A DNA stretch of 64,000 bases from a bacterium (lineage in GTDB: Archaea; Thermoplasmatota; E2; JACPAO01; JAHFTW01): the NCBI GenBank assembly GCA_040390065.1, contig JAZJZE010000001.1:128001-192000 (forward strand). The letters run 5' to 3'. A model generated the notes under the pieces. The model was not told the origin of the DNA. It made no database searches and saw only the letters and a list, made by a program, of their open reading frames with translations. Position numbers and translations under genes: made by a program. This document shows positions 2,621 to 31,478 of this stretch, in pieces (the first letter of the stretch is position 1; every line of letters starts with the position of its first letter).

Positions 2621-2621
2621 A

Positions 2622-2743: not shown

Positions 2744-3015
2744 TCGGGCAAGCACAGATTCCACAGAACCACTTTCGGTCCCGTCTGGTGGTGACCTCGG
2801 ATTTCCTCGAATGGCGTCCGCCAGAATTCCGCAGATGGATTTGGCAGGCATTGCCAAGATTTCCGCACAGCGTTCGGCACGGCGCTGGGCATGGATTCTC
2901 AGGAATCGTGCCGGATTCCAGCCTCATTCATCTGAGGAATTCTGGGGAAGCCATTCCAGTGCGGCGCTAGAGCCGTTGCAGCGCGAAGCCAAGGATTTCT
3001 GCGGAATCTGTGTTT
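2744..3015. repeat. Nested-palindrome intergenic repeat, copy 1 (right end displaced to 31439-31453 by the island)
   Basis: Outer IR CACAGATTCCACAGAA (2753-2768) / TTCTGCGGAATCTGTG (2997-3012); inner IR CCAGAATTCCGCAGATG (2821-2837) / CATCTGAGGAATTCTGG (2929-2945); small hairpins inside. Confidence 0.8.
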
Positions 3016-3051
3016 ACCGACCTTTACGAGTCGGGTAACTATAAGTCATAG

Positions 3052-3651
3052 GTGTTGTCTATCTGGTGTGTGAAGCCAATCCATGCCGGCCGTTGGGTGT
3101 CGCTGCTGGAGGATGAAGATGTGGCCCGCTGGCAATCGAACCTGGGAACGGGGTCGCGCAACACGGCCGGCACGTATCTGCGCATCCTCGGGCCGTTTGT
3201 GACGAAGCACCACTTGACGCCGAAGAGCTACATCGGGCTGCCTGCAAAGCGTCGTGAGGATCTCTTGACGGACTACATCACGGACCTGGTTTCCGCCCCC
3301 AAGTCGCCGTCGTATATCCTTGTCGTTAGGCAAGCCATCCTGTCGTGGTTGAAGTGGAACGACGTTGAGGTGCGGCGTCGCATCAAGATTCCCAGCCGCA
3401 ACAACCATCCAACTCTGCGCGACGCGTACATTCCGACGCAGGACGATTTGCGACGCGTCCTGCATGCGGCCGATGCTCGAGGCCGCACGGCATTGGCATT
3501 CATCGCCTACGCTGGCCTGCGGCCCAGTGTCCTGGGGAACTCCAACGGGCAAGACGGGCTCCGTTTCAGTGACTTGCCGGAGGCGCACTTTGTCGGCAGG
3601 CCATGCCCAGCTACAAGGTGGCGCACCTCCACGAACAAGGCCAGGACATGA
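3052..3651 (+). pseudogene. Truncated tyrosine recombinase/integrase
   Basis: N-terminal core-binding region followed by the box I motif AYAGLRPSVLG...DGLRFSDLPE. Similarity ends near 3595, with no HxxR box or catalytic Tyr. Confidence 0.8.
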
Positions 3652-3887
3652 TCATCGTGCCCTTGGAGGCCAAGTTCGGGCGCTTGTCCGATAGCGACCA
3701 GGAGGCAACAATTGCGGCGCTCCAGGCGTGCGCCACAGCCGCCGGCCTACGAGGAACAGTCGTCCCCACCTGGACGGAAGGAGGACGCATGCGCTTTGTT
3801 GCCCCGCAGGCATGGCATCCCTTCTTTCGCAGCCTATCCCCGCAGGCGGTGGCTGCCAGCATCAATCGGGAATTGACCTGTCGCTAG
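3603..3887 (+). CDS. Small hypothetical protein (94 aa)
   Basis: VAHLHEQGQDMIIVPL...GLRGTVVPTW...APQAWHPFFRS resembles a small hypothetical family I recall from bacteria; it occupies the position of the lost integrase C-terminus. Confidence 0.65.
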   Translation: MPSYKVAHLHEQGQDMIIVPLEAKFGRLSDSDQEATIAALQACATAAGLRGTVVPTWTEGGRMRFVAPQAWHPFFRSLSPQAVAASINRELTCR

Positions 3888-3941
3888 TCCGGAGCGCACG
3901 CGGCAAGCCCGCAGAGGATATGGTCGCACGCGACAAACCGA

Positions 3942-4808
3942 GTGGCCGAGAGGCAGGGCAACAAGCTTCTATGGGCATCGGTTGCCAAGGCCATGGCTTC
4001 GGGCCGGTCTCAGATTGATCTCGTCGATGCCCTGTTTGCAGGCCTCGATATTCTCCATACAAAGGGGTCACGGCTTATGGATCGAGCCCTCGCAAACCTT
4101 GCCGTCGGTCTGGTAACGTCTGCCAAGAATCCCGTTGCCCGGCGAGTCGTAGTGGACGAATGGCACCACCTTCAACTGGGCGGTGACAACGACAGCATCC
4201 AAGCCGCGATTGATTTTGCCGTAAATCAAGGATGGTTGGTGGAAGAGAAAGGCGCCTTGAGGCCAGACGGCGGGGGCGCCACGACCCTGGAAACCCAAAT
4301 TAGCGATGCGTTCGAGCTGTTCGTCTCGGCGCTAATCGGAAAGCACGGCCCGGACGCCTTCGATCGTCATCTGGACGCGGCGGTTCGCCCATTCTTCGGC
4401 GCGTGCGTGCGAGAACTGATGCGGCACTCCGTCGAGGTAGCGATACGGGGAAATCAGGCGGCCGTCGTCGACTGGAACCAGGTCCGAGACGCTTGCCGCA
4501 CAATTGAGAAATCGCACCCGATTGCGCAAGGCAGGAACATGGCAGACCTCTTTGTCGAGTGGGTCAGACAGAGTCAAGGCAAGGCCCTCGGCCCGCTGGC
4601 GGCAAATCTTGCGGTTCTTGCTGCGAGTGTCCGCCTATTTGCGGGACGAAACGCGTTTGGAAAGGCCAACCGCGAGGCGCTTTCTGGGTCCATCGTCGTA
4701 TGGGACGCAAACGTCCTCATTCACTACCTCTGCCCCGCCTCAAGCGATTGGAGTTCGTTGGCAACCCAAAGTTTGGATGACCGCGATATCCTGAGTGGGC
4801 TAGCGTGA
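3942..4808 (+). pseudogene. Hypothetical protein ending in the start of a PIN-like domain (probably truncated)
   Basis: IVVWDANVLIHYL near the C-terminus is the first PIN motif, but the ORF stops about 30 aa later. Confidence 0.45.
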
Positions 4809-4949
4809 GCGGACGGGGGCCGCCGGGGGCCAGTCGCCTAGACCGGGTGTTCGCACCCTGAGGATGCCCCGGACGGGCCATCCGTGCGGATGGGTGCCTG
4901 GCAGCCCGCCAAGAGGAAAACGAAGGCCAACACCGCGGTCGCCTTCGTG

Positions 4950-6419
4950 TCAGACCCGCCCCGGCGTGGGAACTCTGGTGTACTCCCTTTCCCGGCCGCG
5001 CCGCTCACAGGCGATAATGCCGCGCGCCTCAAGCATTGCTAGACGGTAGCGGACGTTGCTGCGCGGCCAGCCATGCGACGCCATTGCGTCGGCGATGCTG
5101 GATTGACTGCATGGACCTAAGGACGCGACCGTCGAGGCCAAGAGGGCGTTCCTGGGGTCGCCGAGGGCCGCCACGGTGCTCCAGTTGGCGTCGTATCGCC
5201 CATGGTTTTCGAAGAAGCGCTTCCGGTTCCCGTCCCTTTTCTCGACGACCAGGCCGGCCCGCTTCAGGACGTGGAGGTGGCGGGTGAGGTTGCCTTGGTG
5301 GATGCTGAGTTCGTGGGCAATTGTGCGGAAGTTTGTGCCGGGGTGCTCCTCCACGTAGGTGAGGATGAGGCGTCGACGCGGATGATCCAAGGGCTGCTTG
5401 ACGAGGAGTCCGCCAAGGAGTTTCCAGGCCACCCAGGCCATGATTCCCAGGCCGGTTGCGACGATGGCGGTGGCACCGGCTTGCGCGGGTTGCAGGAGTC
5501 CAGGTACGGTGCGTTCATCGACAAGGACGCTGGACGGGTTGCCTCCGATTCGGGCAGCCATGTGGCTGTCGTCCACGCGGTGGATATCCGTCAACGTGAC
5601 GTTGCCTTGGGTTGAGAGCGTGCCCGTGCAGTTGCAACTGTCGGACAAATTTGCAAGGGGGAGGCGCAGGACACCGTCGACGCCCAGGTCAAGGTGGTCG
5701 GCCCCGGCCGCAAACAAGGGATCGGGGGCATCAAATACCAACGAGCCCCCGCTGACGTTCGCCTCTTCGATGGATTCGCGTCCAACGTAGAGATTGCTTG
5801 TGGGAGAGAACTCGATCTGTGCGCCGCCTCCGCTAGGGCACTTGCCCCAAGAGAAGTTGCAGGACGTGGTCGCGGCCGCCCATTGGAGGTAGGTAATCCC
5901 CGTCGCAACGACATGCATGCCTCGAGCGTGACGGGATTGAATGGCGACCGTGTGCGCGGGGGATGCTTGATCCTGATAGTTGGTGTAGCCTTCGGGCTTG
6001 GCAGCACTCGCCATGAAGGTGCCCTTTGGAACGAGGAGCGTGCCATTGAATTCCGCCTGAATGCGGATGGACTTCGCCATAATGATGAGATGTCCGGCTC
6101 CTTTCGAGCCGTAGTGAAGGGCAAGGGAGCCGGCACCGGTATCCCAGGGATCCGTCGTGGCCGGCCCCGCGTGCTCGGCATACCCAAAGACGGGCGTGAA
6201 CACGGCGAAGTCGGCCGGCCGCGTCGTGTTGACGATATGCCCGGCACTCCACACCACTTGGCCATCTCCACCAGATAGCGGGACGGTGACAAACGCCCAC
6301 GTCGCGTTTGCAGCCAGGACTTTTCCTCCAACTTCTGCTGGGGAGTAGAAGGATGAGGACCCCTGCGCGGACGCGGCGCTAGCCAGCAACGCGAGTACTA
6401 GGCCAACGGTTGCTCGCAT
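4950..6419 (-). CDS. Membrane-anchored one-component regulator: signal peptide, extracellular domain, TM and tandem winged HTH
   Basis: N-terminal signal peptide, TM segment AIVATGLGIMAWVAW, then HPRRRLILTYVEEHPG...LTRHLHVLKRAGLV and a second wHTH. Confidence 0.8.
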   Translation of the reverse strand: MRATVGLVLALLASAASAQGSSSFYSPAEVGGKVLAANATWAFVTVPLSGGDGQVVWSAGHIVNTTRPADFAVFTPVFGYAEHAGPATTDPWDTGAGSLALHYGSKGAGHLIIMAKSIRIQAEFNGTLLVPKGTFMASAAKPEGYTNYQDQASPAHTVAIQSRHARGMHVVATGITYLQWAAATTSCNFSWGKCPSGGGAQIEFSPTSNLYVGRESIEEANVSGGSLVFDAPDPLFAAGADHLDLGVDGVLRLPLANLSDSCNCTGTLSTQGNVTLTDIHRVDDSHMAARIGGNPSSVLVDERTVPGLLQPAQAGATAIVATGLGIMAWVAWKLLGGLLVKQPLDHPRRRLILTYVEEHPGTNFRTIAHELSIHQGNLTRHLHVLKRAGLVVEKRDGNRKRFFENHGRYDANWSTVAALGDPRNALLASTVASLGPCSQSSIADAMASHGWPRSNVRYRLAMLEARGIIACERRGREREYTRVPTPGRV

Positions 6420-7255
6420 TGGAAGTCCTTGAACTCGTGGATGCGGCCGTCGAAGTTGATCTCGTACAACGCCTGCGCTTCACCCACGTACGGGTTTGGC
6501 CGGGCGGTCGCGTACAGGAGGGGAGAATAGAGTTGGCCGGTCGTCGGATCAAACTCATGCCCGGGGAACTTGAAGGTGTAGTTCCATTGCATGTAGCTGA
6601 TTCCTTGGCCGTTTGGCCAGGCGTACCGGATGGCGGCTTCGAACGGGATGACGTCGGTCTCCGTGGAGTTCATGGACAGCCTATTGGTGCCGGTCCCGTT
6701 CGTGATGGTCCAGCGCCAGTCGTGGCTGCCAAGCACCAAGGCAGCGCTGGCAGCGCTGGCATGGCCGGTTCCGGCGTAGGCCGGCAGGTGGTATCTGTCG
6801 TGCAGCCAACTGGCGACTGCTGTATCGTTGACCATAATGGCATGGACGATTTCCGTGGTCACGGCGGGACCATCGCAAGCGGGAGGGGGGACGGCGTTGT
6901 CGGCGGTGTCAAAGACCATTAGGAGGGGGCGTTCGAAGGAACCCAGCTTGACGCGATCACATGATAGCAGATTGTCATAGACGTAGCTCTGCGCGCGAGG
7001 CGCCGCCTTCCAACCCTGAGGAATCTCGCCCGGAGCCGTCATCGTCGGGAAGGGGCTCCTGGCTTCCAAGCCGGTGCAGTTGTTGCCAATCATGCCCGCC
7101 TCTCCCGGGGCCGGAATGAACGTGGTCGTTGTGCTAGATGTTGGTTGCGTGGTCGTGCCGTCGTAGGAACTCGTGCCTTGGCTGATCCCATCCGCCCGCG
7201 GTCCACCGCACCCGCACAGGGCGAGGCAAATGAAGGCCAAGGCAAGTCGTGACAT
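6398..7255 (-). CDS. Putative lipoprotein
   Basis: Lipobox-like LALCGC and Thr-rich linker; overlaps the next gene. Confidence 0.7.
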   Translation of the reverse strand: MSRLALAFICLALCGCGGPRADGISQGTSSYDGTTTQPTSSTTTTFIPAPGEAGMIGNNCTGLEARSPFPTMTAPGEIPQGWKAAPRAQSYVYDNLLSCDRVKLGSFERPLLMVFDTADNAVPPPACDGPAVTTEIVHAIMVNDTAVASWLHDRYHLPAYAGTGHASAASAALVLGSHDWRWTITNGTGTNRLSMNSTETDVIPFEAAIRYAWPNGQGISYMQWNYTFKFPGHEFDPTTGQLYSPLLYATARPNPYVGEAQALYEINFDGRIHEFKDFQCEQPLA

Positions 7256-7258
7256 CCC

Positions 7259-7648
7259 TCACCAGGAGGCAGTTGGCGGCGGGCACTCGACATAGCCCGG
7301 TTCCGAGATACAAAACCAGATGTGGCCGCCGAGGACCGAGTCATCGTTACGCTGGATCCAGACCGAGTGGCCATGGAAGCCAGGGAGTTCGGAATCGACG
7401 TCACCCATGTCATGACCACCACTTGCGGGGAGGCCGTAATGCGTCAACACGCAGTTCACGCGGTCCTGCGCAGACATCGGGACGCCAGGCTGCAGGCACT
7501 CGTTGATAGTGGACTCCAACTTTACGCAAGGCTCGTAGAGTTGCGTGTTCCACACGTCTTCGCATGGCACGTTGCCGGCGTGAGCGGGCATGGCAAAGAG
7601 GGGAGCAATGGTCACGACTGCGCACAAGGCGAATGAAAGGTTCTTCAT
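7259..7648 (-). CDS. Small secreted Cys-rich protein (129 aa)
   Basis: Start refined to MKNLSFALCAVV...PAHA (signal peptide); six Cys in the mature part; first gene of a three-gene unit. Confidence 0.6.
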   Translation of the reverse strand: MKNLSFALCAVVTIAPLFAMPAHAGNVPCEDVWNTQLYEPCVKLESTINECLQPGVPMSAQDRVNCVLTHYGLPASGGHDMGDVDSELPGFHGHSVWIQRNDDSVLGGHIWFCISEPGYVECPPPTASW

Positions 7649-7789
7649 CGACACTCCCCCGAGCAACCCCCCTTTAGGGGGACGTTTCTCGACCCCCCCG
7701 CTGGTATGTAAGCCTTGTCTGGAGCTTGGTGAATCGAATGGCAAGAATCGCACTCCCCAGGCTAAGACGTCCCCGCCAATCGGTCGCTC

Positions 7790-10700
7790 ATGCATGCACG
7801 GGGCGCAAGCTCGCAGGGGCGCATCGGGAATTTGGCCAAGTCTGCGAAGTCTCCAAGGGCGTGGTCGTCCGTTGCGTGCATTGCAATCTTCGTGCTGGGC
7901 GCCCTTGCCCCAGTCGCCACTTCGCAGTTGCCCCCGCCTCCTCAACCTCCGACCATGCCCCTGACGCCTTGCTCCGTGGGGACGGGGTACGAGCCGGACT
8001 GCATCGTGCCGTGCGAGCCGCCGGCGACGGGTTTCCAGCCCAACTGCTTGCAGCAATGCCCCACGGACCAGCCTGGACTCTTCCAGCCCGCATGCATCGG
8101 CCCCTGCCCACCCAACACCCTAGGCCCCGCCACGCCGGGCTGCGTGCCGGTTTGCCCCGCCGACGAGTACCTGGGACCCCGCGACGTAGGCAACGCCGGC
8201 CTGACGGTGCGTGGCTGCGTCTACATCGACCCCGCCATGAACGGCAAGCTCGACGCCCAGGATCCAAGCCAAGACGGTGTTGTCATCTTCGTCGACCTCA
8301 ACAACAATACCCTGCGAGACCCCGGCGAAACGTATACGACCAGCAGCCAAGGCGGCTACTTCACCATGAACGTCGGCGTCATCGCATCCACGTCGGCGAC
8401 ACTCCGCGAAGTTGTGCCGTCCGGCTTCGCCCAAACCGGCCCACGGCCAAGCACGGATGCGTGGAGTCGCTGGTTCTACTACAAACTGCAACCGTCAACG
8501 CATGAGTATGACGGCTTCAACTTCGGCAACTTCGCAGCCTGCCTGAACTACAACGTGACTCCCCCGTCGGTCAACCTGACCGCCCCGTCCTACAACGTGA
8601 CGCCTCCTTCGGTGGCCAACTGCACGCCCGTGCCGGATACGTGTCAATCGTACGGTCAGATCTTCCGCAGCTGCGACCCCTTCGCTCAACCGCCCCCATG
8701 CACGCCCGGCATCCCCGGCATCTTGCCTCACGAATGCTTGCCCGTGCCCCACCCAATCTCCCCTGGGAATTCGACGGGTTCAAGCGGCGACCAGAACAAC
8801 ACCTGCCTGCCAGCCACGTCGGGCACACTCGATAGTGGAGCGGACCTGGATTCCTGCGGCCCCGTGCCAGGCTATGATTGGCCCAACACGCCCTTCATGG
8901 GCGGCGGCACCCCGGCTCTCTGTGCTTGCGGCGAATCCGGCGGAGGCGGCCAAGGCGCCGCCGGCACCGTGAACCTCTACACGGGCGAAATGAAGCTGCA
9001 AGTCACGCCCGCAGTCCTTCCCGTCAGTCGCGGCTTCGAATTCGCCTTCAACATGACGTACCGCAGCAGAAGCCCCAACGCAACCGCAGGAGACAACATG
9101 TTTGGCCCGCGGTGGGACTACTCGTACGGCGCCTACATCCACGACGCGGGCGGCCCCCTCGTGCTGCACCCCGGCAACGGGCAAGCCATCCCCTACACGT
9201 CTATCACCGCGACCGTGTGGGTGCCGCCGCCGGGCTTCTACAACCAAATCACCGTCCACAACTCGACCGCGTACGATGTGCTCGAACAGCACGGCATGGT
9301 TCGCACCTTCACGAAGGCCAGCACCCTGTATCCCTACGATGGTTCGGCGCAGGACTACAAGCTCACTGGAATCACGGATCCAAACGGCAACCATCAACGC
9401 GTCTGGCCAAGCCACGCCGTCATGGACACCCAAGGCCGCCTCATCTTCTTCGGGGAACTCGACGCGACGACCATGGGGTGGCACCGCGGCTCGTCCGAGA
9501 CGGACCCTTACTACATGCCGCCCGAATTGCCCGGCTGGGGCATCGCGGAAATCGAAGGCATCAAGCTCCTCAACTCCGACGCAATCCATTGGACGTCCGC
9601 CTTCAATTGGGCGACTGGGTACTGGGACATCAAGAACACCGCAGGCGACCTGGTCAGCTACCCAGGCTGCACGGTGGCCTGCATGAACTACACGGACAAC
9701 GCCGGAGTCTGCGATGACCACTGCGGCGCGGACGGCTACAGCATCCAGTACCGCGAACTTGCCCACTTCAACGACATGCCAGCCGACGGCAACCCATGCC
9801 TCGGCGGCGTCGCTGGATTCGGGGGCGCAGGCGGCGGCTGGGGCTACGACGTAAGCCGCGACGGATCACCGTGCCGCATGACGAACTTCAACGACCCCAT
9901 GGGAACATCCCTCGAGACCAACAGCTACGATGGACGCGACCGCGTCGTCTCCCAGGACGGGATCCACAAGTACGGTTTCCAATACGATGACACCGCGTGC
10001 CATACGACGTACTGGAACGAGGGCCACAACCGCCTCGACTACTACTGCCTCGACCACCAGCGACCCTTGACGGTGAAGATGGTGGAGTACACGAATCGCC
10101 ACGCCAACCCAGACGATCCACCCTCCTATTCGACGTATTACACGTACAACCAGAACGGCGAAGTCACGGCCATCCATTGGCCCCGCGGCAACCTGGACGA
10201 ATACGTGTACGACGACTCCAACAGCGACGTTCGTGCGCAGGGAAACGTCATCTGCCACATCCAGGACCCCGGATCCTTCCTCGTCGGTCTGGACGGGGAG
10301 CCGCAGTTGCCAATCATTACTAAGTACACGTACAACGCCACGTTCCAACGCGTCGCGAGCGTCGTGGATGCGCGCGAGTCGTATCCCGGCTTCATGCCAC
10401 CCCAGGGCCAGGTCACGCCGGGCCGGTTCACGTCCACGTATGATTATGATGAGCATGGCAACCTGATCCATGCGGCGTACCCGGAGAGCCGAAGCGAGTC
10501 CTGGACGTACAACACGTATGGCCAAGTGCGAAACCACACGGATGTTCTTGGCACGACGGAGAACTTCACCTACTTCGCCTCCAATGGGAAGTTCACGGAT
10601 GCCGGCGACGCGGAAGGCTATCTCGCTCAACACGTCCAAGACATCACGGGCTTCCGCCTTGTTACCACCTACACTAGGGACCGGGATGGAAACCCGACGA

Positions 10701-15663: not shown

Positions 15664-15741
15664 CAGGCGGCGCCCAATCCACGTGTTGCGCTCATGCCGC
15701 CAACGGCAACGTCCTTTCGGATGAAACGTGGTACGCGCCCC

Positions 15742-15900
15742 TCATGTTTGCTCATATTCAGGGGGTTTTGACGTTGCCCTTTTGGTCACTTCCTCGTAAA
15801 ACTCGCGGGGAGTCCGCCAGCCCCATCGTTGCCTCTCTTTGACGAGGTTGTATTCAAGCCGGGCGGTTTCGACGATTTCTCGCGGGCAATCGTTCCATCC
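15742..15900 (-). pseudogene. IS3/IS481-type transposase C-terminal remnant
   Basis: RLEYNLVKERQRWGWRTPREFYE resembles a degraded integrase-core YN..RPH..LG..TP.E motif. Confidence 0.45.
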
Positions 15901-17412: not shown

Positions 17413-17560
17413 GAATCCTTCTTCAGACCTGCAGAGGGTGCCGGCCCCCAATCGGGGGGCCTGTCATGGCGGACTACCCATCGGAAATCCACCGCTATAT
17501 CCCTTCCGAGGATATCGCGCGCCCATAGCGTTCTTTCGCGTTCGCTTGGGCGCCCGCTAA

Positions 17561-19635: not shown

Positions 19636-19742
19636 AACATCCAAGTCAGCCCCCGGGGGAATGCGGTCCGTCTCCAACCGACCAAACCACCCACACCGGC
19701 CCGCCCCCGGGGGACACCTATCAGTCAGGGACGGTGCGACGG

Positions 19743-20405
19743 CTAGAGGATGTAGGGCGGAAAGAAAAGGCGAGCGCCATTCGTACCGTCATGCAGGACC
19801 GGACGGACTTCGAGGCGATACTTCTCGCCAAGCCAGATACCCGTGGGAACTACGACATTGCCCCGCAGGCGGACTCGATCACCGGCCCGGATTAGCATGT
19901 CGTTGCTGTCCTTGCCGGGGAAGTGTCGTTGGATGCTCTGGACTTCCCAAGGCGGCAGGTCACCTTCGCCCGCCATGGGGACCACCTTGACCCACAGGAC
20001 CGCGCTGTCCTTGTGGCCGGAATTCAGGATATCAAAGTCGACCTCCTTCACCTCACCGCCTTGCAGGCGCAGGAAAGGGTTTCCCCGAATTTCCGCAATC
20101 TCGAAGACAGCGCGATCCCGCTTGTCCTGCATCTCAAGCAAATTCTGTTGCTTGGCCATCAGCGTGGCCTGACGTTTTAGGAGCTCTTGTTGTCGCGATG
20201 TGACTTGGTACAAAAGGACGGCAACGATGAGGGCCCCAAACGTTCCCACCGCCTGCAGGCCAGCGGAGAAGTGTTCATCGCGGCCAACTAGGATTGCGGC
20301 GAAACCGAAAATCAAGGTTGCCCCGACAATGGGCAATACGACTCGAGTGAGTCGAAGCCACGGCTTCTCAACGGCGCGGCCCCAATCGTCGGCTTTGACG
20401 GGCAT
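19743..20405 (-). CDS. Hypothetical membrane protein (2 TM, coiled coil, soluble domain)
   Basis: Hydrophobic N-terminal helices followed by a Q/L-rich coiled segment. Confidence 0.6.
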   Translation of the reverse strand: MPVKADDWGRAVEKPWLRLTRVVLPIVGATLIFGFAAILVGRDEHFSAGLQAVGTFGALIVAVLLYQVTSRQQELLKRQATLMAKQQNLLEMQDKRDRAVFEIAEIRGNPFLRLQGGEVKEVDFDILNSGHKDSAVLWVKVVPMAGEGDLPPWEVQSIQRHFPGKDSNDMLIRAGDRVRLRGNVVVPTGIWLGEKYRLEVRPVLHDGTNGARLFFPPYIL

Positions 20406-20524
20406 CGAATGCCCCTATGCCCGGGTGTTCGCTTGGACGTATCGACGCGCCGCGTCGGGACCCCAATCCGAACTGCCGTCCATTCCGGGGCGGCGCCGCC
20501 TGCGCCAGATGCAAGAAACCTCTG

Positions 20525-20600
20525 CGCGGCGCGCAAGGGCTGCGCTCCTAGGCCGGCTTTCGCCGGCTCGTCGTCGCGCCGCCGTGCGGCGGCTCGACGC
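20525..20600. repeat. GC-rich multi-hairpin repeat, copy A
   Basis: Near-identical to 24005-24079; differences include the loop of the GCCGGC hairpin. Confidence 0.85.
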
Positions 20601-20736
20601 TGCGTGTCCCCGCGGCAAGGCTTTGGCGACTCAGGCCGGGCGGGCAGGACGTTCGGAAACCTTGCTCCGCAGGTGTTTCAGGTCTGGCCGTTCAGGATGC
20701 GATGCTGGGAGGAGGAGTCCCCAGTTTCATCGCAGA

Positions 20737-23700: not shown

Positions 23701-23913
23701 CGGAAACGGGTCTGCAAACGCGACTTGCGTGCACCCCGCCGCGCAGCCGGGCATGCCGGCGTGATTGTCCATGCCAAAAGACCAGAAGACCAGTCCGGAC
23801 GACACTGCCGAGTCGGCAGTTGGTGCCACCGTCATGACGGAGGCCCCGACGGCCGTGACGAGCAACAGGACGGCGGGGAACACCTGGACGTTTCGAGGAT
23901 GCTTGCGGGTCAC
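20737..23913 (-). CDS. Secreted protein with IgGFc-binding N-terminal domain, PKD-like segment and C-terminal Kelch repeats
   Basis: Signal peptide; LLPETDWGTDY, DLTGSLVTADQPIGV, CDHIEEQVWP and GDPAM motifs; Kelch units such as MPTPR...KVLVFGG...FETYN...W. Confidence 0.85.
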   Translation of the reverse strand: MTRKHPRNVQVFPAVLLLVTAVGASVMTVAPTADSAVSSGLVFWSFGMDNHAGMPGCAAGCTQVAFADPFPTAATVKATSCASGTSSFYPVAGSSSNPGFSYANVAGTAMTSNGLYMISSTAPIGVSQLNDHDPAMASNDVSQLLPETDWGTDYVITTYTPLSPSEPAEIVVIASVPTTVTVTPTVTTTAGGGLPAMAAGMPYSFALPPCTAAQIEAPNDLTGSLVTADQPIGVLEGTRCSNIILLLACDHIEEQVWPRSSWGSTYILCRSPLRGSEGDLVRIMALVPGATSVTVSGTPYALPSAYSYVDVTVTSDAAIVATHAVSVVEYLKGEMETGSPSGQGDPAMTQLDPVTAFYPVYSLYHFPGPLSARFAMVAAPTGSSVLVDGAALTGFSSVGSSGYSCARASSMAIGLHTVAGPAAGISVQYGAYGNAASYLAPAFRGGATYEVRGGTLYWAPTTPGSVVFKGQWAGNLLKYGGATVVPGAIVPWGILDFGDGTPPTTLSGRVTSVVASLNYFLADWTDPAGAPVTHAYVSVAAPSPPIGWTAVAQGPPWLDNPSPSLPPGVIDHHDNNPLQPSRFTTTVTAGALIGSPIPAFTPVYVCAIARPCKIPFSATNPPPLGALPGPIYRFATTPEAGATFAQPWGPLSIDATTGIVTWTPPPVLVYPPGSVNRDYFSIAVVAEIPGIAATSLVIETPIQSLILLCDPDHLPPGMPPGQRCALPPDCPETAAGAATKSSGLIVSHGGGPLCLPYGTLAATRSYDYPGVPGSWFPIAPAIVPRAQAAGAAGEPQPLLGEEDYWVFGGVGPSSLCTGPGGTCDKVERYQLHGKILPDPLTSTWSLEPNPMPTPRAGLSAVYVNSKVLVFGGAQCAGMYCGTPLSTFETYNVVGKTWSTTGAMPTPREDLAAAGQAWWVDNACLPGGVPEYIYLVGGNTGLGTPDLTRVDVYDYCGGTWLSPTLVPPLPYGVSGAVAGICTSGPSVGNLYVIGGVHAGLPANRIQTYIPATPGIPGGGGWVTSFLPSAKTMMARSQIAGPGLVAYSDTELGAYNQFSC

Positions 23914-24004
23914 GAGGGCTCACCAGGAAAGCCGAAGCGACGTCGCCCTCGGCAGACCTCATTCGTGCCCGCCTTGATGTACCTTGGGAGCCCAGCCGTA
24001 GCCC

Positions 24005-24107
24005 CGCGGCGCGCAAGGGCTTCGCTCCTAGGCCGGCCGCGCCGGCTCGTCGTCGCTCCACCGTGCGGCGGCTCGACGCCACGTCTCGCCGCCGCAAGCG
24101 CGCCGCG
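24005..24107. repeat. GC-rich multi-hairpin repeat, copy B (complete, 10-bp terminal IR)
   Basis: CGCGGCGCGC (24005-24014) / GCGCGCCGCG (24098-24107) enclose two hairpins. Confidence 0.85.
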
Positions 24108-24475
24108 CCCAAGGGGACCGCCGCCGCCGACACCAACCACTGTCCGACGCTACGGGAATTGTACTAGAGGTCGAAGGAGCCATGACGCGAATCGAGGTCA
24201 TCGACGCCGTGCCATTGTGCGCGCAGGCATGAAGAACGTCCCCATTTTTCGCCATCGTCGGATGGATCTCCCGCGCGATGGGCCGACAGGAACCCACTCG
24301 CAGCGGCGCGACCCAGAAGACGCTGCGGAGCGCCAGTCATGTCGTCGCAATCCACCACGGGCTATCGCAAGTGGCATGCCTTGCATTGCGTGGTCCGCGA
24401 GGCCCGTGCTGATTTCTCGCAATTCACGGCTAGGTCTATCGCGGCCTGGGCCATTTGAGGGCTGGACGGCGCCGC

Positions 24476-25447
24476 ATGATTCACAAACCACTGCATTTCC
24501 TTGGATTGGTCGCCCTGGCCGCGGGCCTTCTCGTTCCTGCCGGGGCGGACGGGCTCAGCCGGGACGTCAGCCGGACCATATATGAGACCGGAGCGCACGC
24601 CCAGACGACGGGCATCGGATGGTTCCAGAACGTGCCCCACCTGGTCTGCGTTATCGAGGTTTTCGGCGTACCGGGCGAGGCCGGCGCCGCGTACTACTCC
24701 AACTTGCGCATCTACCCGAACGTGGGGGCGACCCAGGCCATCCCGCCGACCGTGCCGCCCGTGCCGTTGGCCTGCCCGGCGGCCATCAATCCCGCCTGTA
24801 ACAACCCGGGCCCGGTGGACCCGTGCGCCATCCAGGTTGGCGGGATTAGGGCGGACGAGGGCTTGTTCATCGCCCAACGGGCCTGGCACTGCCATCTGGA
24901 CGCGGTCGACAACTGCTACGCAGTGCTCGGTACCGCCAAATGGCTTTTGTCCACGTGCCCGTGGAACAATGCAGCCTGGGCCTTTGCGGTCCAGAACAAG
25001 GGCACCTTCCGCGGAACTCCCCAGGACGGAGTGCTCATGAGTGCGAGCATGACGTGCGGCGCCCCGGCCGCCGCCGAGGCGGACTACGACGTCACGGCGT
25101 TCATCGACACGTACGGCGACGGCTTCTCTGGATCGTACAACAACCACGTCCCGCTTGGGGCCATCGTGGCGCCGGGCATCGGGGACTACTACGTGTACTC
25201 GTGCTACCAAGTGGACAAGTTCATCGTCACGGGCGCGCCTCTGCCGGTCTCGCACACGGACGCGGCCGCTATGACGAAGTCGCACGACTGGGCCCTCATC
25301 CTGGACCCCGCCGCACCGCCCCTTGTCCACACATTGTCAATCGTCACCCACGTCGGCGTCACGCTCAACCTGCAAGGCGTCTACGATCTCAGCGGCCAGA
25401 ACGGCTGCCAGGCCCAGGCCAACGCGCCGATTGTCCTCACGCCGTGA
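24476..25447 (+). CDS. Secreted Cys-containing hypothetical protein
   Basis: Signal peptide MIHKPLHFLGLVALAAGLLVPAGA; strong GC3 bias. Confidence 0.7.
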   Translation: MIHKPLHFLGLVALAAGLLVPAGADGLSRDVSRTIYETGAHAQTTGIGWFQNVPHLVCVIEVFGVPGEAGAAYYSNLRIYPNVGATQAIPPTVPPVPLACPAAINPACNNPGPVDPCAIQVGGIRADEGLFIAQRAWHCHLDAVDNCYAVLGTAKWLLSTCPWNNAAWAFAVQNKGTFRGTPQDGVLMSASMTCGAPAAAEADYDVTAFIDTYGDGFSGSYNNHVPLGAIVAPGIGDYYVYSCYQVDKFIVTGAPLPVSHTDAAAMTKSHDWALILDPAAPPLVHTLSIVTHVGVTLNLQGVYDLSGQNGCQAQANAPIVLTP

Positions 25448-25592
25448 TAAAAACGCGGGGCAGTACGCTCCTTGCGAAAAGGCAACCCATCACGCAATCC
25501 TACCCAGGATTGTGTCATGCCTAGCAGTGCGACTTCAAGAGCACGTACAGAATCCATGGTTCGTGAACCCCAACCGGCGTCGGGTCCTTGCA

Positions 25593-26417
25593 ATGGAATT
25601 GCTTCCGTTTGCCCTTGGTGCGTCCGCGTACCTGGCTGGATTCCTGGCGTGGGCAGCGTTCTCCAACTTCTATGGCCTCGGCTTCTTGGCCCTCACGGCC
25701 CAGCAGTACCTGGCGGCAGGGATTGTAATCCTCGCCTTGATTTTTGGATGGACGTTCCTCGTTGACCAATGGGACCTTCGAATTGAGGAAACGGTTTCAC
25801 ATGCTTGGAGCCGGTGGGCGACGCGCGCCTCTTTTCATTGTGTGGCACCCTTTGTAGTTCTAGTTCTCGTCCTGTCTGCAGTGCAAGCCCTTCGCGGCGT
25901 TACCTTGGTCCGAGTTGACATCATTTCGTTCAGCGTGGCAATCGCCTTGGTGGCACTCGCAATGGACGCGATGCTGGCGGGAATTGAACGCCGGGCCAGC
26001 AAGGCCCCCTCGACACGTGCACCCCAGCACGAAGAAGATCAACGGCGATTCCTCGCAGAGGCGCGAGCAGCACGACGGCGCGGAAGGACTATGCTACGTA
26101 CACCGGTTGTTGCTGTCGCATTTGTCGTACTATTTGGCGCCCTTGCCTTGCCGCATGTGGAGCCAGGGTTTGGCGGCGCCCGGCCGCGTCAGGCGATTCT
26201 AGAGTTGGATGGCGCGAGCTTGAGCGATTCGTTGAAGCACTTACTCTTGGCGAACGACACCCTCACAGCCGGTGGCACCGTCCGGACCGTGCCGGTCAAC
26301 ATCTTGTTCATTGACGGGGACGAGGTTCTGTTTCGACTGGTAGGACAAGACCTTCAGAAGGGAGCTTTGTACTCCATCAACTGGGCAACCGTCCATTCAA
26401 TCACATGGCTATCATGA
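25593..26417 (+). CDS. Hypothetical multi-pass membrane protein
   Basis: About five hydrophobic helices and a C-terminal soluble domain. Confidence 0.6.
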   Translation: MELLPFALGASAYLAGFLAWAAFSNFYGLGFLALTAQQYLAAGIVILALIFGWTFLVDQWDLRIEETVSHAWSRWATRASFHCVAPFVVLVLVLSAVQALRGVTLVRVDIISFSVAIALVALAMDAMLAGIERRASKAPSTRAPQHEEDQRRFLAEARAARRRGRTMLRTPVVAVAFVVLFGALALPHVEPGFGGARPRQAILELDGASLSDSLKHLLLANDTLTAGGTVRTVPVNILFIDGDEVLFRLVGQDLQKGALYSINWATVHSITWLS

Positions 26418-26673
26418 TGGATCAGCCCACGCCCCAATTCGGAACGGATATTTCGATGGGCGCACCAGCCGGGGAGGCCAGCTATCGTTGGCATGGCGGA
26501 GCCCGCCATTTCAAGGGGGAGGCTCGACCATTTGTTTGCCCAAGGGGCTGCCGGCGACGGCCCCAGAACTAGTTCCGGAGGCCCGTGCTTGGCTTACTGT
26601 CCCCGTTGCGACCGTCATGCATGCTTTTGCTCGCCTCGCTGAAACCGCAATCGCTGCCGTTAGCGAACGTAAT

Positions 26674-28380
26674 CTAGGCGTCAAGGGCCAGCTTGGCGAT
26701 GTAATTCTTGTCCACCTTCACCACGTCGCGCCGCTCCGGCTTGATCCAATAGAGAAATGGCGAGGGCTTCCGCCATGCAATTCCCAGGCGTCCGTTGGTG
26801 ACAAGGTAGCACTTCTTGCGGGCGCGTGTGAGGGCAACAATGTATTGGCAGACCTCAATCTCGGCCGGCGCGGCTTTTGGAAGGTCGCCCGCATTCATGC
26901 CCACTATGAACACCCACCCGGCGGAGAGACCCTTGGCGCTGAAGGCCGTTGTCAAGCCGATTTCTGGCACCACCCTCTCGCCGTCGTCCTGCGGACCACC
27001 AATCCAGGCTTCAATCTCCGTCCAAGGGTACCCGGTCGCCGCTGCCAACGCCATCCTTTCCTGCTCGGAAAGCTCCTTTTTCAGTGCAGCGGCAAGCAGC
27101 GCGGCAGCTTCGACGTGCTTGGCCACAAATTCGGCCGGAAGAAGTGCGCATAGTGGGCCGCGACTGGCGAGCGCCTTCGGCAGAATCGTCGCGAGGAGCG
27201 TCCCGTCCACCGCTCCAACAACGAGTCGCCAACCCAGGTTCGAGCCCGGGTTTCGCGACAGCATCCGATAACCATCCAGACGCCTTCTGGTGACGGGCGG
27301 TTCCGCCTTTAGGAAGGCGACGCCGTTTCGCTTGGTAGCCAAGAAGTCATGGACCATGGTGAGGTAATGCTTCGGTCCGATGATCATGGCGGCCGGGTAT
27401 TTTCCTTTCGCCGCATCCCACTCGGACTTTGGCATCTTTCGGAGTTCGCCTTCGACGAACATGCCCACATAATTGCGGCCGGCCTTGCCCGCAATGGTGC
27501 ATTCGGCCTGGACGATCTTCGGGTACTGCTTGCTATCAGCGCCTTTGTCCGGCGTGTATGTCAGGTACTGTTTGTCAACCCTGTCACGGAACAGGCCGGC
27601 TTTCTTGGCGGCTGCGACGACATCGTGGACTGCGTCGACAATAACGGAAGTACATCGCCCGCAATAGGGCAGCTCGAAACGCTCAAACTCCGGGTTCTTC
27701 GCGGCCTCCCGCAGGTGTTTCGGATGCGCGTGCCGGAAGGCGTAAAGTGCTTGGTCGTCATCCCCCGCAATAAGCACGGGACTTCTGGCAGATAGCATCT
27801 GGAGAAACCGCACTTCCAGGGCGTTGAAGTCCTGGTACTCGTCGACCACGATTTGATCGTACACGGGCACAGTTCGCTTCCCGGTCTTGAATTGGTCAAG
27901 GACTCGGTAGACCGCATCGTTGTGGCCAACCGCGTCGTAGTAGTTGCCGGCATCGAGAAAAAACGGAATGCGCTCGTCTTCGACGAGTAGGCAAAAAGCA
28001 TCCTCGAACTTGTCCCTGGGGCCGCCGACCACGACGGAGTCTTCCGCAATCACCAAGTCGAGCGCGGGGTAGTATTCGAAGTCCTTCGTCAGACCGTCCC
28101 CCGGCAAGATGTGAAGCTGCTGCTTCGCATATGCGTGGAACGTGGCCACATCTGCATAGCCGTCGAGTTCCGCCTTCAGTTCGGTGGCGAGACTGTTGAT
28201 GAAAGTCAGCGCTAGGCACTTTCCCTGCTTGCCTGCCAAGGCTTCCCTGAAGGTGAATGTCTTCCCTGTTCCTGCGCCGGCCACCACGATACGTTTCTTC
28301 GACGTTGAAGCCACAATCTTGGCGACGCAGGCCTTTCGCAACGTTGCTTCATCCGCTGGTCCAGCGCCCGCCAAGGCCAC
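26674..28380 (-). CDS. Compact UvrD/SF1 helicase
   Basis: Motifs AGAGTGKT, LTF, VVDEYQD, GDDDQ, SAKGL and ALTRARKK. Confidence 0.9.
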   Translation of the reverse strand: MALAGAGPADEATLRKACVAKIVASTSKKRIVVAGAGTGKTFTFREALAGKQGKCLALTFINSLATELKAELDGYADVATFHAYAKQQLHILPGDGLTKDFEYYPALDLVIAEDSVVVGGPRDKFEDAFCLLVEDERIPFFLDAGNYYDAVGHNDAVYRVLDQFKTGKRTVPVYDQIVVDEYQDFNALEVRFLQMLSARSPVLIAGDDDQALYAFRHAHPKHLREAAKNPEFERFELPYCGRCTSVIVDAVHDVVAAAKKAGLFRDRVDKQYLTYTPDKGADSKQYPKIVQAECTIAGKAGRNYVGMFVEGELRKMPKSEWDAAKGKYPAAMIIGPKHYLTMVHDFLATKRNGVAFLKAEPPVTRRRLDGYRMLSRNPGSNLGWRLVVGAVDGTLLATILPKALASRGPLCALLPAEFVAKHVEAAALLAAALKKELSEQERMALAAATGYPWTEIEAWIGGPQDDGERVVPEIGLTTAFSAKGLSAGWVFIVGMNAGDLPKAAPAEIEVCQYIVALTRARKKCYLVTNGRLGIAWRKPSPFLYWIKPERRDVVKVDKNYIAKLALDA

Positions 28381-29204
28381 AAGGGCTCCACAGCCAACCC
28401 CGAGATGAGGCTAATGCTGCAAGAAGGAACGGCGGGGTCCTGCGTGCGCCCGCCTGCAAGGGCGCCGCGCCTTCGCGCCACCTGAACGGCTACGGGCCTG
28501 CTGGGGCCGGGGTTGGTGTCGGAAGGGCCTGGGGTCCTCGATGCCCGGGCTGGGCGGCCTCCCCGACCAGGCCCTGCGTCAGTTAGGTTCGGCCGCGGCC
28601 CGGGACTGCGCCGTCCGGGCGGGGCCGTTCGTCGGCCGGCTGCGCCGGGGCTCCGGACGCTCCAACGGCCGGTATGCGCGTGCCTCTTGCGAGCAGCTTC
28701 GTAATTCGCGGTAAGATGGCGCTTGTCCTGGGCCTTGTTCATGTGACGCAGATTGGTGATGCCTCATTCATTCGGGCTCTGGCCGAACCACGACTTGTCT
28801 TGCCGGTCACATTTCTCGTCGCCAGCAGCGATGTCGATAGCCTCCATCGTTTATGGTGCCGGTGGACGGCCCGACGGTGCGGGACGCAGACATGCGCTCT
28901 TGGGTTTGATGGGCGAGTGCACTCTCGGATTGAGAGTATCGCCGCGGGAAACGGCTGCAAGTGGGCCCGGCTTCTGCCCGCTGAAGGCCCTCCTTCGTCC
29001 TTGTTGGGTGGATGCCTTGGATCCGTGGACTTTGGCCGGACTGGAGGTGACGGGGGCTCGAAGTTCTATGGCGGCTCGAAGTTCTACCCCAGCGGGGTCC
29101 GCGGTCCCGGCTACCTGGCCCAGAAGTCTGCCGCGCTTCGACGGACGAAGTGGACCCCCGGTGAAGTCCCGGGCTTCCTCTGGTTTGGCGGCCGCGCCGC
29201 GGGC

Positions 29205-31004
29205 CTACGCGTAGTACGGGCTCAAGTCCAAGCCACCCGGCTTGGGGGCGTTTGCGGCTGTCGCCGCGGGCGGCGGCGGAACGGGAGGCAATTTCTGTAG
29301 GACTTCCTCCGCTTTCTGTTTCACTTTGTCCTTCAGGCGCTCAATGGGCCCCTTCTCGGGAAACATGTCGCCCGACAACCTCGGCAAAACATGCGTCGTG
29401 AAGGCGTCGACGAGGCGGTCCCTTCGGCGGTCCGAATTGTCGCTGGCTTTCTTGGCGATTCTTCCGGCCGTATCCATCGCTGCAAGTAGGGTCAGGGTTT
29501 CGCCGTCCACGGCGTGCCGCGACCAGACGCCGCTGCCGCGGTCCAGTTCCTTCCACCCCCACTGGACGTGTTCGTTTGGTCCCAGGCGTTCGAGGATTAG
29601 CTGCGCGTCCTCGGTGCGGCAACCGATGTAAGTGCTTCCCTCCTTCTCGTGGATCCAAACATCCCTCCAGAAGGGCTCGGGGGCTTGCGCAGCAATCTCA
29701 GGAGCAACAGGATTCGTGCGAGCTTCCGGGAGGAGCATACTAGCGTCAGCCTTGGTTTCGGGGAGGGCTTCCGAAAGAGGTGTGCAAGGGCTGCCGGTCT
29801 CCGTCACGTTGGGGGCCGGCAAGCAGCCGGCAACTTCCTGGGCCCTGTCGTTGGCGTCGCACGCGCCCTCATCAAGTGCGGGTCCGAGACACATGTCGGT
29901 CATGACCGTCGGCGTCGACCCCTCAGGTACCTGGGGCGGCATGCGGGCACTCTGCGACTGCGCCGGACTGGGCGACGCCACGGCATCGTCGGATGCATGG
30001 CCTTCCCGATGTCCCGACTGTTCCTGCGGCGACTCTTTCCTGTCGTCTGCGCCTTGCAACTGACTGACGTCGGAGGGGCGACTCGATGTGGCGGCGGCTG
30101 CAGAATCGAGCGCGCGTTGCAGGTCGTCGCGAAGGTCTTGAAGATGGTGCACTTCGCCGTCGAGCGCATCCCGCTGGCTGCGTAGGTCGTCGCGCTGTCG
30201 AGTGGCCCAGGCAACCTCCTGTTGGCGACTCGTCAAGGCCTCTTCCGCTTCATCCAACTCCGCTTGTACTTGCGCGCGGCGAGCCTTGAGAACCTCATGC
30301 TCCTCTTGGGCGCGGCTTCCTCGGTTCCCGACGGCGTGGGCACGGCGCCTCAAGGTGGCAAGGCGCGCCTCCAGGTCGCTAACCTCGCGCTGCTTCGTGG
30401 CGGCCTGCGCTGCCGTGCTTTGGATCGTGGACTGCAAGGCGTTGATCTTTCCGGTGAGGGTCTGCAGGTGCCTGGCGGCTTGGGCCTCGTCTTTGTGGTA
30501 GGCAAGGAATTGCGCCGCCTTTTCGGGGGTGAGAAGGAGGCGCAAGGCGTCCTGTGACATGCCGGTTTCGGTCTCCGCGATTCTCAATTGAGCCGCAACG
30601 CCCCCCGCCGCGTCGAGGGTCGTTAGGGCTTCCAGGGGCAGCTCTAGCAGGCGCGCCCGGGCAGCTAGGTCTTGCGTGACGGCCTCCAGATCATCAATTG
30701 CGGCTTGTTCTGCTTGTGCCCGCACGGCGTGGACCTCTTGGCGCAAGATGGCCTTGGCTCCTTCCTCGTCCTCCAAGTCTTCGGCTAGGACATCGAGGGT
30801 CGCCTTCAGGCGGACTCGGCGGGCCACATTGGCAAGCGTTGATCGAGGCGGCGAAGCGACGGGGGCCGGCGTGGTTCGTGCAAGGACGGCGGTGATAGTC
30901 TTGACGTCGTGGCCCGTTTCCTTGGCGATTCTGGCCTTGCTGTACCCCGCCGCGTGGAGTTTCCTGATTCGGTCGGCCTCATCCGGCGCAATCATGTGAG
31001 CCAC
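29205..31004 (-). CDS. N-terminal HTH plus long coiled-coil protein of the island
   Basis: IRKLHAAGYSKARIAKETGHDVKTITAVL HTH followed by a heptad-rich region. Confidence 0.75.
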   Translation of the reverse strand: MAHMIAPDEADRIRKLHAAGYSKARIAKETGHDVKTITAVLARTTPAPVASPPRSTLANVARRVRLKATLDVLAEDLEDEEGAKAILRQEVHAVRAQAEQAAIDDLEAVTQDLAARARLLELPLEALTTLDAAGGVAAQLRIAETETGMSQDALRLLLTPEKAAQFLAYHKDEAQAARHLQTLTGKINALQSTIQSTAAQAATKQREVSDLEARLATLRRRAHAVGNRGSRAQEEHEVLKARRAQVQAELDEAEEALTSRQQEVAWATRQRDDLRSQRDALDGEVHHLQDLRDDLQRALDSAAAATSSRPSDVSQLQGADDRKESPQEQSGHREGHASDDAVASPSPAQSQSARMPPQVPEGSTPTVMTDMCLGPALDEGACDANDRAQEVAGCLPAPNVTETGSPCTPLSEALPETKADASMLLPEARTNPVAPEIAAQAPEPFWRDVWIHEKEGSTYIGCRTEDAQLILERLGPNEHVQWGWKELDRGSGVWSRHAVDGETLTLLAAMDTAGRIAKKASDNSDRRRDRLVDAFTTHVLPRLSGDMFPEKGPIERLKDKVKQKAEEVLQKLPPVPPPPAATAANAPKPGGLDLSPYYA

Positions 31005-31478
31005 ACCTTCATGGTCGACATCAAGGTGGGAAGGGAGCCTTAAGGTTTAGGCAGTTACTTGCTGAAGTAGTGCATATTGGGCGACCTGAGCTTGGCTGCG
31101 ACTTAGGCCGCGAACGTCATTTTCCAGTGATAAGTCGCCTTGGAACGAAAAACGGGAAGTTGGGAATTCCCCGGGAAGGCACCAGATTTCGGATGATTTA
31201 TCCAGGCCGCACCGGGTGAACCAGGGATGGCGATTGGACGTTGGCGCCCCTCATAGCAGATGTTTGGGATTCGGAAGGGGGCGATTCTGGGAGGCCCACT
31301 CCCCGAGTTCCAACGGAAATCCAAGCCCACCTCAATGCCGGACCCCGGCAACAGCCTGAAGACGCACCTACCCTTGCAACGCCAACGCGGCGGCCTCTCC
31401 TTAAGGGAGGTATTCCACGACCCAAAACGGTCGGTAAGTCTGTGTTTGCCCGAGAGCCATTCGCGAGCCGCGCCCGCG

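Follow-up and report, generated by a model that had tools for sequence, protein, structure and literature searches.

The window analysed here, a 64-kb stretch of a Thermoplasmatota genome (C1:128001-192000 of a 2.68-Mb assembly in 50 contigs, 89% complete and with 65% G+C), contains an island of about 28.4 kb that lies in the right arm of a palindromic repeat and carries a truncated tyrosine-recombinase (integrase) gene at its left end. We propose that the island is a decayed mobile element that entered the repeat arm by site-specific recombination and that its lineage was retargeted from tRNA genes, a reading to which we give a probability of about 0.6. The parts of this reading differ in strength. 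Insertion of the island into the repeat arm is near certain, and site-specific entry mediated by the integrase is likely. A dedicated repeat-targeting lineage, known from two examples of which the one in the window is dead, is plausible rather than probable.

The island interrupts one arm of a palindromic repeat

The original prediction placed the ends of an integrative element at two copies of TCTGTGTTT, at 3007-3015 and 31439-31447. Both were found exactly there, and they are the sole two matches on both strands of the window (0.18 expected; 0 of 100 shuffles reach two). Two inverted arms accompany them: TTACCGACC occurs at 3014-3022 on the plus strand and as its complement at 31429-31437, again with no third match in the window (0.32 expected; 5 of 100 shuffles reach two). 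Joining 31447 to 3016 therefore gives a circle with perfect 9-bp inverted arms around an 8-bp spacer, so that the predicted circle junction follows directly from these positions. Judged by its sequence, a core with two perfect inverted half-sites would have the anatomy of a tyrosine-recombinase core site. The features at the island boundaries are as follows.

2744..3015, no strand: palindromic repeat resembling miniature inverted-repeat transposable elements (MITE) or repetitive extragenic palindromes (REP), comprising the left arm, the body and the part of the right arm before the crossover (272 bp; 97% identity over 273 bp to C1:123688-123960)
3007..3015, plus strand: left 9-bp direct repeat copy TCTGTGTTT, core of the left attachment site (attL)
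3014..3022, plus strand: island-side 9-bp arm TTACCGACC, putative integrase core-binding half-site
3016..31438, no strand: inserted island, about 28.4 kb (lower G+C than the flanks; absent at eight same-genus loci)
3052..3651, plus strand: truncated tyrosine-recombinase (integrase) gene, 199 amino acids (aa), with homology to about residues 1-185 (to about nt 3606)
31429..31437, minus strand: island-side 9-bp arm, inverted copy of 3014-3022
31439..31447, plus strand: right 9-bp direct repeat copy TCTGTGTTT, core of the right attachment site (attR)
31448..31459, plus strand: severed outer end of the right arm of the repeat (12/12 and 11/12 to family ends)

Removal of the island restores the repeat. 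After excision (2996-3015 joined to 31448-31453), the site pairs with 2744-2768 at 23 of 25 positions, exactly as predicted, compared with 19/25 for the uninterrupted sequence. Compared with outer ends of the repeat family elsewhere, the 12 bases at 31448-31459 agree at 12/12 positions with the copy at C5:98881 and at 11/12 with the left arm of the copy at C1:123680, whereas the 12 bases now following 3015 match those same two ends at 2/12 and 3/12. We therefore conclude that a repeat copy already in place received the 28.4 kb in its right arm. The whole of 31439-31459 is identical (21/21) to C5:98881-98901. The G+C content of the island is about 0.58-0.68, compared with 0.70-0.72 in the left flank (1-2000). 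With a direct repeat at both ends and an integrase gene beside one of them, the island is built as an island bounded by attachment (att) sites. Its integrase open reading frame (ORF) begins at 3052, as had been predicted, and this start lies 37 nt from the junction, compared with 38 nt in a canonical sibling island on contig C11 of the same genome. On visual comparison, the core in the repeat arm is bordered by bases similar to the island half-sites, with one-base differences.

A 9-bp direct repeat together with short terminal inverted repeats is also a classic mark of transposons. We therefore weighed a transposon with a 9-bp target-site duplication and a target preference for the repeat arm, whose terminal inverted repeats would be the 9-bp arms. 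An ORF near the right end, with weak matches to helix-turn-helix (HTH) domains, could be taken in its favor.

29205..31004, minus strand: 599-aa protein with a weak N-terminal HTH (HTH_38/HTH_7-type; Pfam matches below cut-off)

Such an element needs a transposase, but Pfam scans of 27 ORFs located inside the island or next to it assigned none to a transposase family; the Atlas model of the 599-aa ORF was poor, and its search gave no usable match and nothing pointing to a transposase. Furthermore, the ends are offset by one base, since the inverted arms are asymmetric to the direct repeat, with one extra base (31438) at the right. The gene starting 37 nt from the junction belongs instead to a recombinase family with the integrase fold and shows the geometry typical of that family. 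The transposon explanation thus fits less well than integrase-mediated entry, and we regard it as very improbable.

The target repeat is dispersed across the genus

The interrupted repeat (2744-3015) folds as a single long hairpin (-63.4 kcal/mol, z -4.7) and matches no Rfam family. Its second copy, at C1:123688-123960, lies just outside the window, and two others lie inside it.

34190..34383, no strand: repeat copy, more diverged
47780..47943, no strand: repeat copy

Across the genome, a 16-mer from the arm (up to 3 mismatches) was found at 52 places, compared with about 9 expected. Eighteen of these form nine inward-facing pairs, 164-260 bp apart, which align as one family. The family consists of nested inverted motifs with two types of outer end, and GGAATCTGTGTT is present on nearly every end. 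An arm 18-mer (up to 2 mismatches) was detected in all 13 genomes of the genus, with 3 to 94 matches each (12 in this genome and 94 in G007) and 0 for reversed-pattern controls. These results demonstrate that the repeat family is real, old and dispersed genus-wide, and its multiple dispersed copies, conserved terminal inverted arms and size below 300 bp make it MITE/REP-like. A consistent target-site duplication was not evident by eye in the flanks of the repeat copies. The suggestion of many landing sites per genome is supported by the nine paired copies here and by the occurrence of the arm in 13/13 genus genomes.

A second repeat family, with about 12 copies, has the CACAGATTCC motif followed by a conserved tail of about 45 nt ending in ...GGTGAGCTCTTGC (for example C3:18947, C3:45249, C5:47151, C12:22250, C21:15925 and C43:26607 in the G000 genome). 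Short hairpins made of GGAATCCACCGAATCCACAGAAAC occur in the same genome, for example at C3:18255 and C9:251800.

A truncated member of a divergent integrase family

ORF 3052-3651 is homologous to 430-455-aa proteins on contig C11 and in relatives. It retains the N-terminal DNA-binding domain and the region of the first catalytic Arg, and the full catalytic set R..K..H/Y-x-x-R..H/W..Y is not present in it. In an alignment of 40 homologous sequences, R169, R238 and Y323 are invariant, and R289 and H315 nearly so. The C-terminal part was not found anywhere in the assembly by tblastn with five intact homologs, nor in other frames downstream of the ORF. The ORF is thus a pseudogene fragment, and we regard the element as a fossil because the assembly nowhere contains the catalytic part. 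We rejected a split integrase of the Sulfolobus spindle-shaped virus (SSV) type, as the fragment reads inward, the break (about 3606) is internal, and no C-terminal fragment was found at the right end or elsewhere. Displacement of the C-terminal half by a nested insertion was likewise rejected for this assembly, in which tblastn with the five homologs finds none.

We utilized AlphaFold to model an intact homolog, G001:C99 (453 aa; predicted local distance difference test, pLDDT, 85.8). The model has the two-domain fold of tyrosine recombinases, with an N-terminal core-binding and a C-terminal catalytic domain. Foldseek matched it to XerA (4a8e, E 1.2e-6), Brujita Int (5vfz), XerA (5hxy), IntI (2a3v), XerH, Cre and lambda Int, each with a probability of 1.00. 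Searches with the integrase against Pfam (including PF00589 and PF02899) and NCBIfam returned nothing at E <= 1 beyond noise. The profile search of the PDB gave nothing significant, its TAL-effector rows being low-complexity noise, and a search for longer homologous proteins of the ORF gave nothing useful. The phrog_1 'integrase' profile matched the C11 sibling at E 7.8e-5 and the window ORF weakly, at 0.036. Taken with the predicted structure, these results show a family of divergent archaeal tyrosine recombinases that curated libraries miss.

The family was found in 40 of 401 sampled Thermoplasmatota genomes and at 55 metagenome loci. A further 23 genome loci are titled Bathyarchaeota, Nitrososphaerota, Hadesarchaea and others. 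One contig (L132), whose integrase is identical to that of same-genus G004:C11, is titled 'uncultured Halobacteriales archaeon'; other contigs of the genus are Thermoplasmatota, and the title is probably a taxonomic mislabel.

The family habit is integration at tRNA genes

We examined where members of this family usually integrate. A co-oriented tRNA ends 19-45 nt upstream of the integrase in 15 of the 19 closest loci of the phylum. In a set of 40 full-length genes, drawn from contigs of metagenomes and genomes, ARAGORN finds a co-oriented tRNA upstream of 15. Five more have a T-loop motif, one has a tRNA on the opposite strand, and 19 have none; two of these 19 (L071 and L097) have tRNA 3' fragments, of 18 and 12 nt, identical to those of tRNA-adjacent siblings. 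The spacing between att site and gene is about 20-90 nt in the family. The canonical sibling island in the same genome (C11:34047-126105, about 92 kb) is bounded by a 22-bp direct repeat that is the 3' end of tRNA-Val(GAC). Its intact 434-aa integrase (C11:124744-126045) lies 38 nt from the distal 22-bp repeat, with the tRNA 92 kb away, and the island carries paralogs of the RHS, PKD and 330-aa proteins of the window island. Together, the 15/19 loci, the 20/40 genes and the C11 sibling establish tRNA 3' ends as the habit of the family. Since tRNA genes are the location of most homologous integrases, targeting of the repeat can be no more than a trait of a small sub-lineage with two examples. 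Under the refuting condition that came with the original prediction, these tRNA locations count against a general link between the integrases and the repeat.

In the tRNA-adjacent members (L068-L090 and L147-L148), the motif (T)GGGTTCAA..CC recurs on the island side, about 5-15 nt beyond the tRNA. This motif is T-arm-like and may be an element-side core half-site.

A second integrase of the family adjoins an interrupted palindrome

In a tree built from the N-terminal region (about 175 columns), the window fragment is sister to the integrase G001:C165, with a Shimodaira-Hasegawa-like support of 0.905. G001:C165 is an intact 430-aa gene preceded by a short palindrome made of the CACAGATT motif, the same motif as here. 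The right arm of this palindrome stops after AATCTGTGTT, at the position homologous to the window break, and unrelated sequence then begins. Fifteen of the 17 bases before the break agree between the two loci, and GGTAAC stands exactly 19 nt after the break in both. The palindrome keeps the left outer end of the G001 repeat family (11 matches in G001, control 0) and is without the right end. The combined two-motif junction pattern was found at these two loci only among 32 family genomes. The claim that the element's bacterial-type attachment site (attB) is the outer arm of a multicopy repeat therefore holds in part: the insertion does lie in such an arm, the repeat family is genus-wide, and G001:C165 shows the same arrangement, but most homologous integrases are found at tRNAs.

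Elsewhere in G001, a truncated integrase of 320 aa (L058, G001:C243) is preceded at about 90 nt by a perfect hairpin with 31-nt arms, which consists of three tandem CACGAATT-type units. We did not count this locus as a third case because its hairpin is intact and uninterrupted.

These observations bear on the possibility of a one-off event at a secondary site, in which a tRNA-targeting integrase landed on a 9-bp look-alike in a repeat arm that is no dedicated attB. Targeting of tRNA is the family norm, the identity extends over just 9 bp, and intergenic DNA in the genus is rich in palindromic repeats, so that chance adjacency is not rare; the G001:C243 hairpin, near a truncated integrase and with no sign of interruption, agrees with this as well. 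However, the island ends are without tRNA-like sequence. ARAGORN and Rfam find just one tRNA in the window, at 35793-35866, and none at the island ends; the nearest tRNA/Rfam match is at 35792. In addition, the predicted half-sites of the element's own attachment site (attP) are perfect inverted copies that look, by eye, like the bases around the core in the repeat arm, and both the junction motif and the spacing recur in an independent element, G001:C165. We consider a one-off event unlikely.

Proposed course of the insertion and points against it

According to the retargeting model, the attP core had an 8-bp spacer between perfect inverted half-sites of 9 bp, which now lie at 31429-31437 and 3014-3022. 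This core would have recombined with a similar, imperfect site within the outer portion of a single arm of a hairpin-forming MITE/REP-like repeat of about 275 bp. Strand exchange would have taken place within the common TCTGTGTTT, now on both sides of the island. The integrase is a member of a pan-archaeal family whose usual sites are tRNA 3' ends, and the lineage of the window copy and G001:C165 would have been retargeted to the arm motif GGAATCTGTGTT, of which genomes of the genus hold many copies. The integrase would afterwards have lost its catalytic domain, and the island would therefore now be fixed. The data show the insertion into the repeat, its direct repeat and symmetric arms, the family, fold and truncation of the integrase, and the tRNA habit of that family; we infer that the integrase of the window carried out the insertion, that it regularly uses the repeat arm as attB, and that the exchange points are those given above. 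We propose tentatively that, in an archaeal integrase lineage of the tRNA type, the arm of a REP/MITE-like palindrome found throughout the genus took the place of the earlier attB. In a bolder form, by analogy with integron integrases and attC, recognition might depend on the ability of the repeat and of the palindromic attP to form hairpins or cruciforms.

Several points weigh against this model. The integrase is just an N-terminal fragment, with no C-terminal piece in the 89%-complete assembly, and its activity therefore cannot be assumed. Most homologs are at tRNAs, as seen in 15/19 loci, in the 20/40 genes with a tRNA or T-loop and in the C11 sibling, and the common core measures 9 bp here versus 12-22 bp in tRNA-targeting siblings. 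Just two repeat-associated cases are known; they are 37% identical to each other, while other members reach 45%, and their sister grouping is based on about 175 columns. For the G001:C165 island, neither the 11 repeat-end matches nor a gapped pattern revealed the other end in G001, which is 71% complete. At this locus, same-genus relatives are without the repeat as well as the island and offer no base-exact empty site, and simple integration does not explain the duplicated gene ends at 2622-2720 described below. Finally, no empty site or circle was seen in viral contigs or in the assembled contigs of one sequencing run (X1, probably the source). The left island end and the integrase profile had no match in the viral contigs. 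Over 29500-33500, the right junction is covered without change by a single X1 contig, the sole loose end, at 31439, is the C5 repeat copy, and there are no joints. Two further runs of that study contained almost none of the sequence words. Because contigs drop rare variants, the X1 result is uninformative either way. As a fossil with two examples, the case is a lead and not a demonstration, and G001:C165 provides an intact candidate enzyme for repeat-arm targeting.

Flanking genes and duplicated gene ends

The island and its repeat lie between two chromosomal genes, and fragments of both genes are duplicated to the left of the repeat.

859..2412, plus strand: left flanking gene with a Mrr_cat restriction-endonuclease-like N-terminal domain (PF04471, E 1.7e-5)
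2417..2623, plus strand: small hydrophobic ORF, 67 aa, directly after the Mrr-like gene (six-frame translation; no significant Pfam match)
2622..2685, minus strand: displaced duplicate of the RibD_C 3' end, last 21 codons (direct repeat D4, 2604-2678 versus 31461-31535, 80% identity; translation)
2673..2720, plus strand: duplicate of the Mrr-like gene 3' end, last 15 codons (direct repeat D10, 2365-2410 versus 2673-2718, 91% identity; translation)
31479..32210, minus strand: right flanking gene, reductase with the RibD C-terminal domain (RibD_C; PF01872, E 5.6e-42)

We compared ten same-genus loci around the RibD_C ortholog, from relatives 65-75% identical to this genome. The Mrr-like and RibD_C orthologs are convergent neighbors in eight of them, with a gap of 7 to about 630 bp, and the remaining two have no Mrr match within the stretch examined. 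Both the island and the palindromic repeat are absent from all eight gaps, and the segment 2413-31478 is lineage-specific. A base-exact empty site is thus unavailable from these relatives, because the repeat is missing there too and identity is just 65-75%; the restored repeat arm takes its place as an internal substitute. The slot between the two genes is a recurrent insertion point: it contains an AbrB/SpoVT-like ORF in two relatives (L017 and L018; G001 and G009) and a 65-70-aa helical ORF in two others (L012 and L013; G008 and G011).

The order along the locus is Mrr gene, small ORF, RibD_C 3' fragment, Mrr 3' fragment, repeat, island, RibD_C gene. The two fragments are fused 'body to body' at a GACGTG microhomology that is present in both full genes, and GACGTGCA stands at the breakpoints in both. 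The RibD_C duplicate still encodes the final 18 residues, one of them changed, and the stop codon, while about 20% of its bases differ. These features show that the history of the locus is more complex than one integration. The topology of the duplicated ends is that left by a single homologous crossover of circular DNA with donor flanks, and tandem duplication could also have produced it. This suggests that the island may have come into the genome along with its repeat from a relative. The duplicated ends leave the evidence for insertion of the island into the repeat unaltered.

In its explicit form, this explanation assumes a circular donor DNA that carried the Mrr 3' end, the repeat already with its island and the RibD_C 3' end, was closed at GACGTG, and entered by homologous recombination in the RibD_C 3' end. 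The order of the gene fragments is exactly the one that a single crossover of such a circle predicts, and GACGTGCA at both breakpoints agrees with it. Moreover, a difference at about 20% of bases with one change in 18 residues points to two functional genes having diverged rather than to a fragment decaying in situ. On the other hand, the homology is short (about 60-75 bp) and 80% identical, tandem duplication followed by divergence could account for the same ends, and the donor sequence was not found. We consider entry of a donor circle possible, though short of an even chance. It would place the insertion into the repeat earlier, in the donor, and so complements site-specific entry into the repeat arm rather than competing with it.

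It is common for an island to restore the 3' end of the gene that it targets, with a displaced fragment remaining at the opposite end of the island. By this logic the element could target the RibD_C 3' end, with the imperfect 75-bp repeats at 2604-2678 and 31461-31535 (D4, 80% identity) as att sites and the palindromic repeat as part of the element. In the available part of one source, a displaced 3' fragment at the far end of an island is stated for tRNA genes (PMC4383910). Targeting of RibD_C would leave the adjoining Mrr 3' duplicate unexplained and would separate integrase and att site by about 370-430 nt, compared with about 20-90 nt in the family. It also gives no account of the repeat arm split between 3015 and 31448 or of the symmetric 9-bp arms there, and other copies of the repeat occur without any integrase. 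We therefore hold this explanation to be highly improbable and retain insertion into the repeat arm.

Comparison with known systems

Integron IntI, whose structure 2a3v is among the fold matches, resembles the present case as a tyrosine recombinase acting on imperfect palindromic substrates, the attC sites, that exist in many copies. IntI recognizes folded single-stranded attC and moves small cassettes. In contrast, nothing here shows structure-specific recognition, and the island is 28 kb long with ordinary core-type symmetry. Palindromes are also used as safe multicopy sites by insertion sequences (IS), with IS1397, ISPpu10 and the IS1111-type IS4321/IS5075 targeting REP or bacterial interspersed mosaic element (BIME) palindromes or transposon ends. 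These elements are small and have DDE or DEDD transposases, whereas here a large island carries a tyrosine integrase. The enzyme of the neisserial filamentous prophage Nf1 is likewise an IS110/Piv-type transposase and not a tyrosine recombinase. In its choice of a dispersed palindromic repeat with many landing sites, the element studied here is like this prophage, also called the meningococcal disease-associated (MDA) island, which targets dRS3, a short dispersed palindromic repeat with hundreds of copies; unlike the present case, that system is bacterial and its target is a 20-bp repeat, as described in the accessible part of PMC3898611.

Archaeal non-suicidal ('pNOB8-type') integrases share with this case the tyrosine-recombinase fold, an integrase gene left whole beside one att site, and a short direct repeat around a large island (names as in the accessible text of PMC8371274 and PMC5861418). 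Most members of the family described here also resemble them in lying at tRNA 3' ends. The present target differs, being an arm of a multicopy palindromic repeat and not a tRNA or a single-copy gene. Our family is also unrecognized by Pfam and NCBIfam, and it is set beside the pNOB8 and SNJ2 families by description only. The 2021 review of archaeal tyrosine recombinases names tRNA, intergenic and protein-coding targets, and 'MITE' and 'repeated sequence' do not occur in its accessible text (PMC8371274). In the literature searched, as far as its accessible text goes, we found no archaeal integrase with a dispersed-repeat target, the sole dispersed-repeat precedent being bacterial, Nf1 at dRS3.

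In archaea and bacteria, the known targets of island integrases are single-copy sites, tRNA genes above all. With a neutral target present in many copies, the spread and stacking of islands and their rearrangement of genomes would take a different course. If the proposed retargeting is true, large islands would gain tens of equivalent, gene-neutral landing sites per genome, combining the freedom of a transposon with a site-specific recombinase, and the repeats would be hot spots for island gain, island loss and repeat-to-repeat rearrangement. A naturally retargeted integrase in a family with clear tRNA sites would also be useful for studying the evolution of site specificity.

Cargo of the island

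In addition to the integrase fragment and the 599-aa ORF, the island encodes the following proteins.

4950..6419, minus strand: 489-aa winged-helix (HTH_20/MarR-like) protein, cargo (Pfam)
7790..14761, plus strand: 2323-aa RHS-repeat protein, cargo (PF05593, E 1e-35, nine stretches)
18100..19635, plus strand: PKD/Big_9 surface-type protein, cargo (Pfam)
20737..23913, minus strand: IgGFc_binding and Kelch protein, 1058 aa, cargo (Pfam)
26674..28380, minus strand: UvrD-like superfamily-1 helicase (PF00580, E 2.6e-21)

No conserved element backbone was apparent, as the island proteins are without homologs beside other integrases of the family within the flanks examined. Elsewhere in the genome, including the C11 island, they have only cargo-type paralogs (RHS, PKD, HTH and the 330-aa protein). 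Direct repeats of about 95 bp at 20525-20619 and 24005-24098 (D7 and D17; 88-97% identical) bracket the 1058-aa IgGFc_binding/Kelch gene, which may mark a nested insertion or a duplication inside the island.

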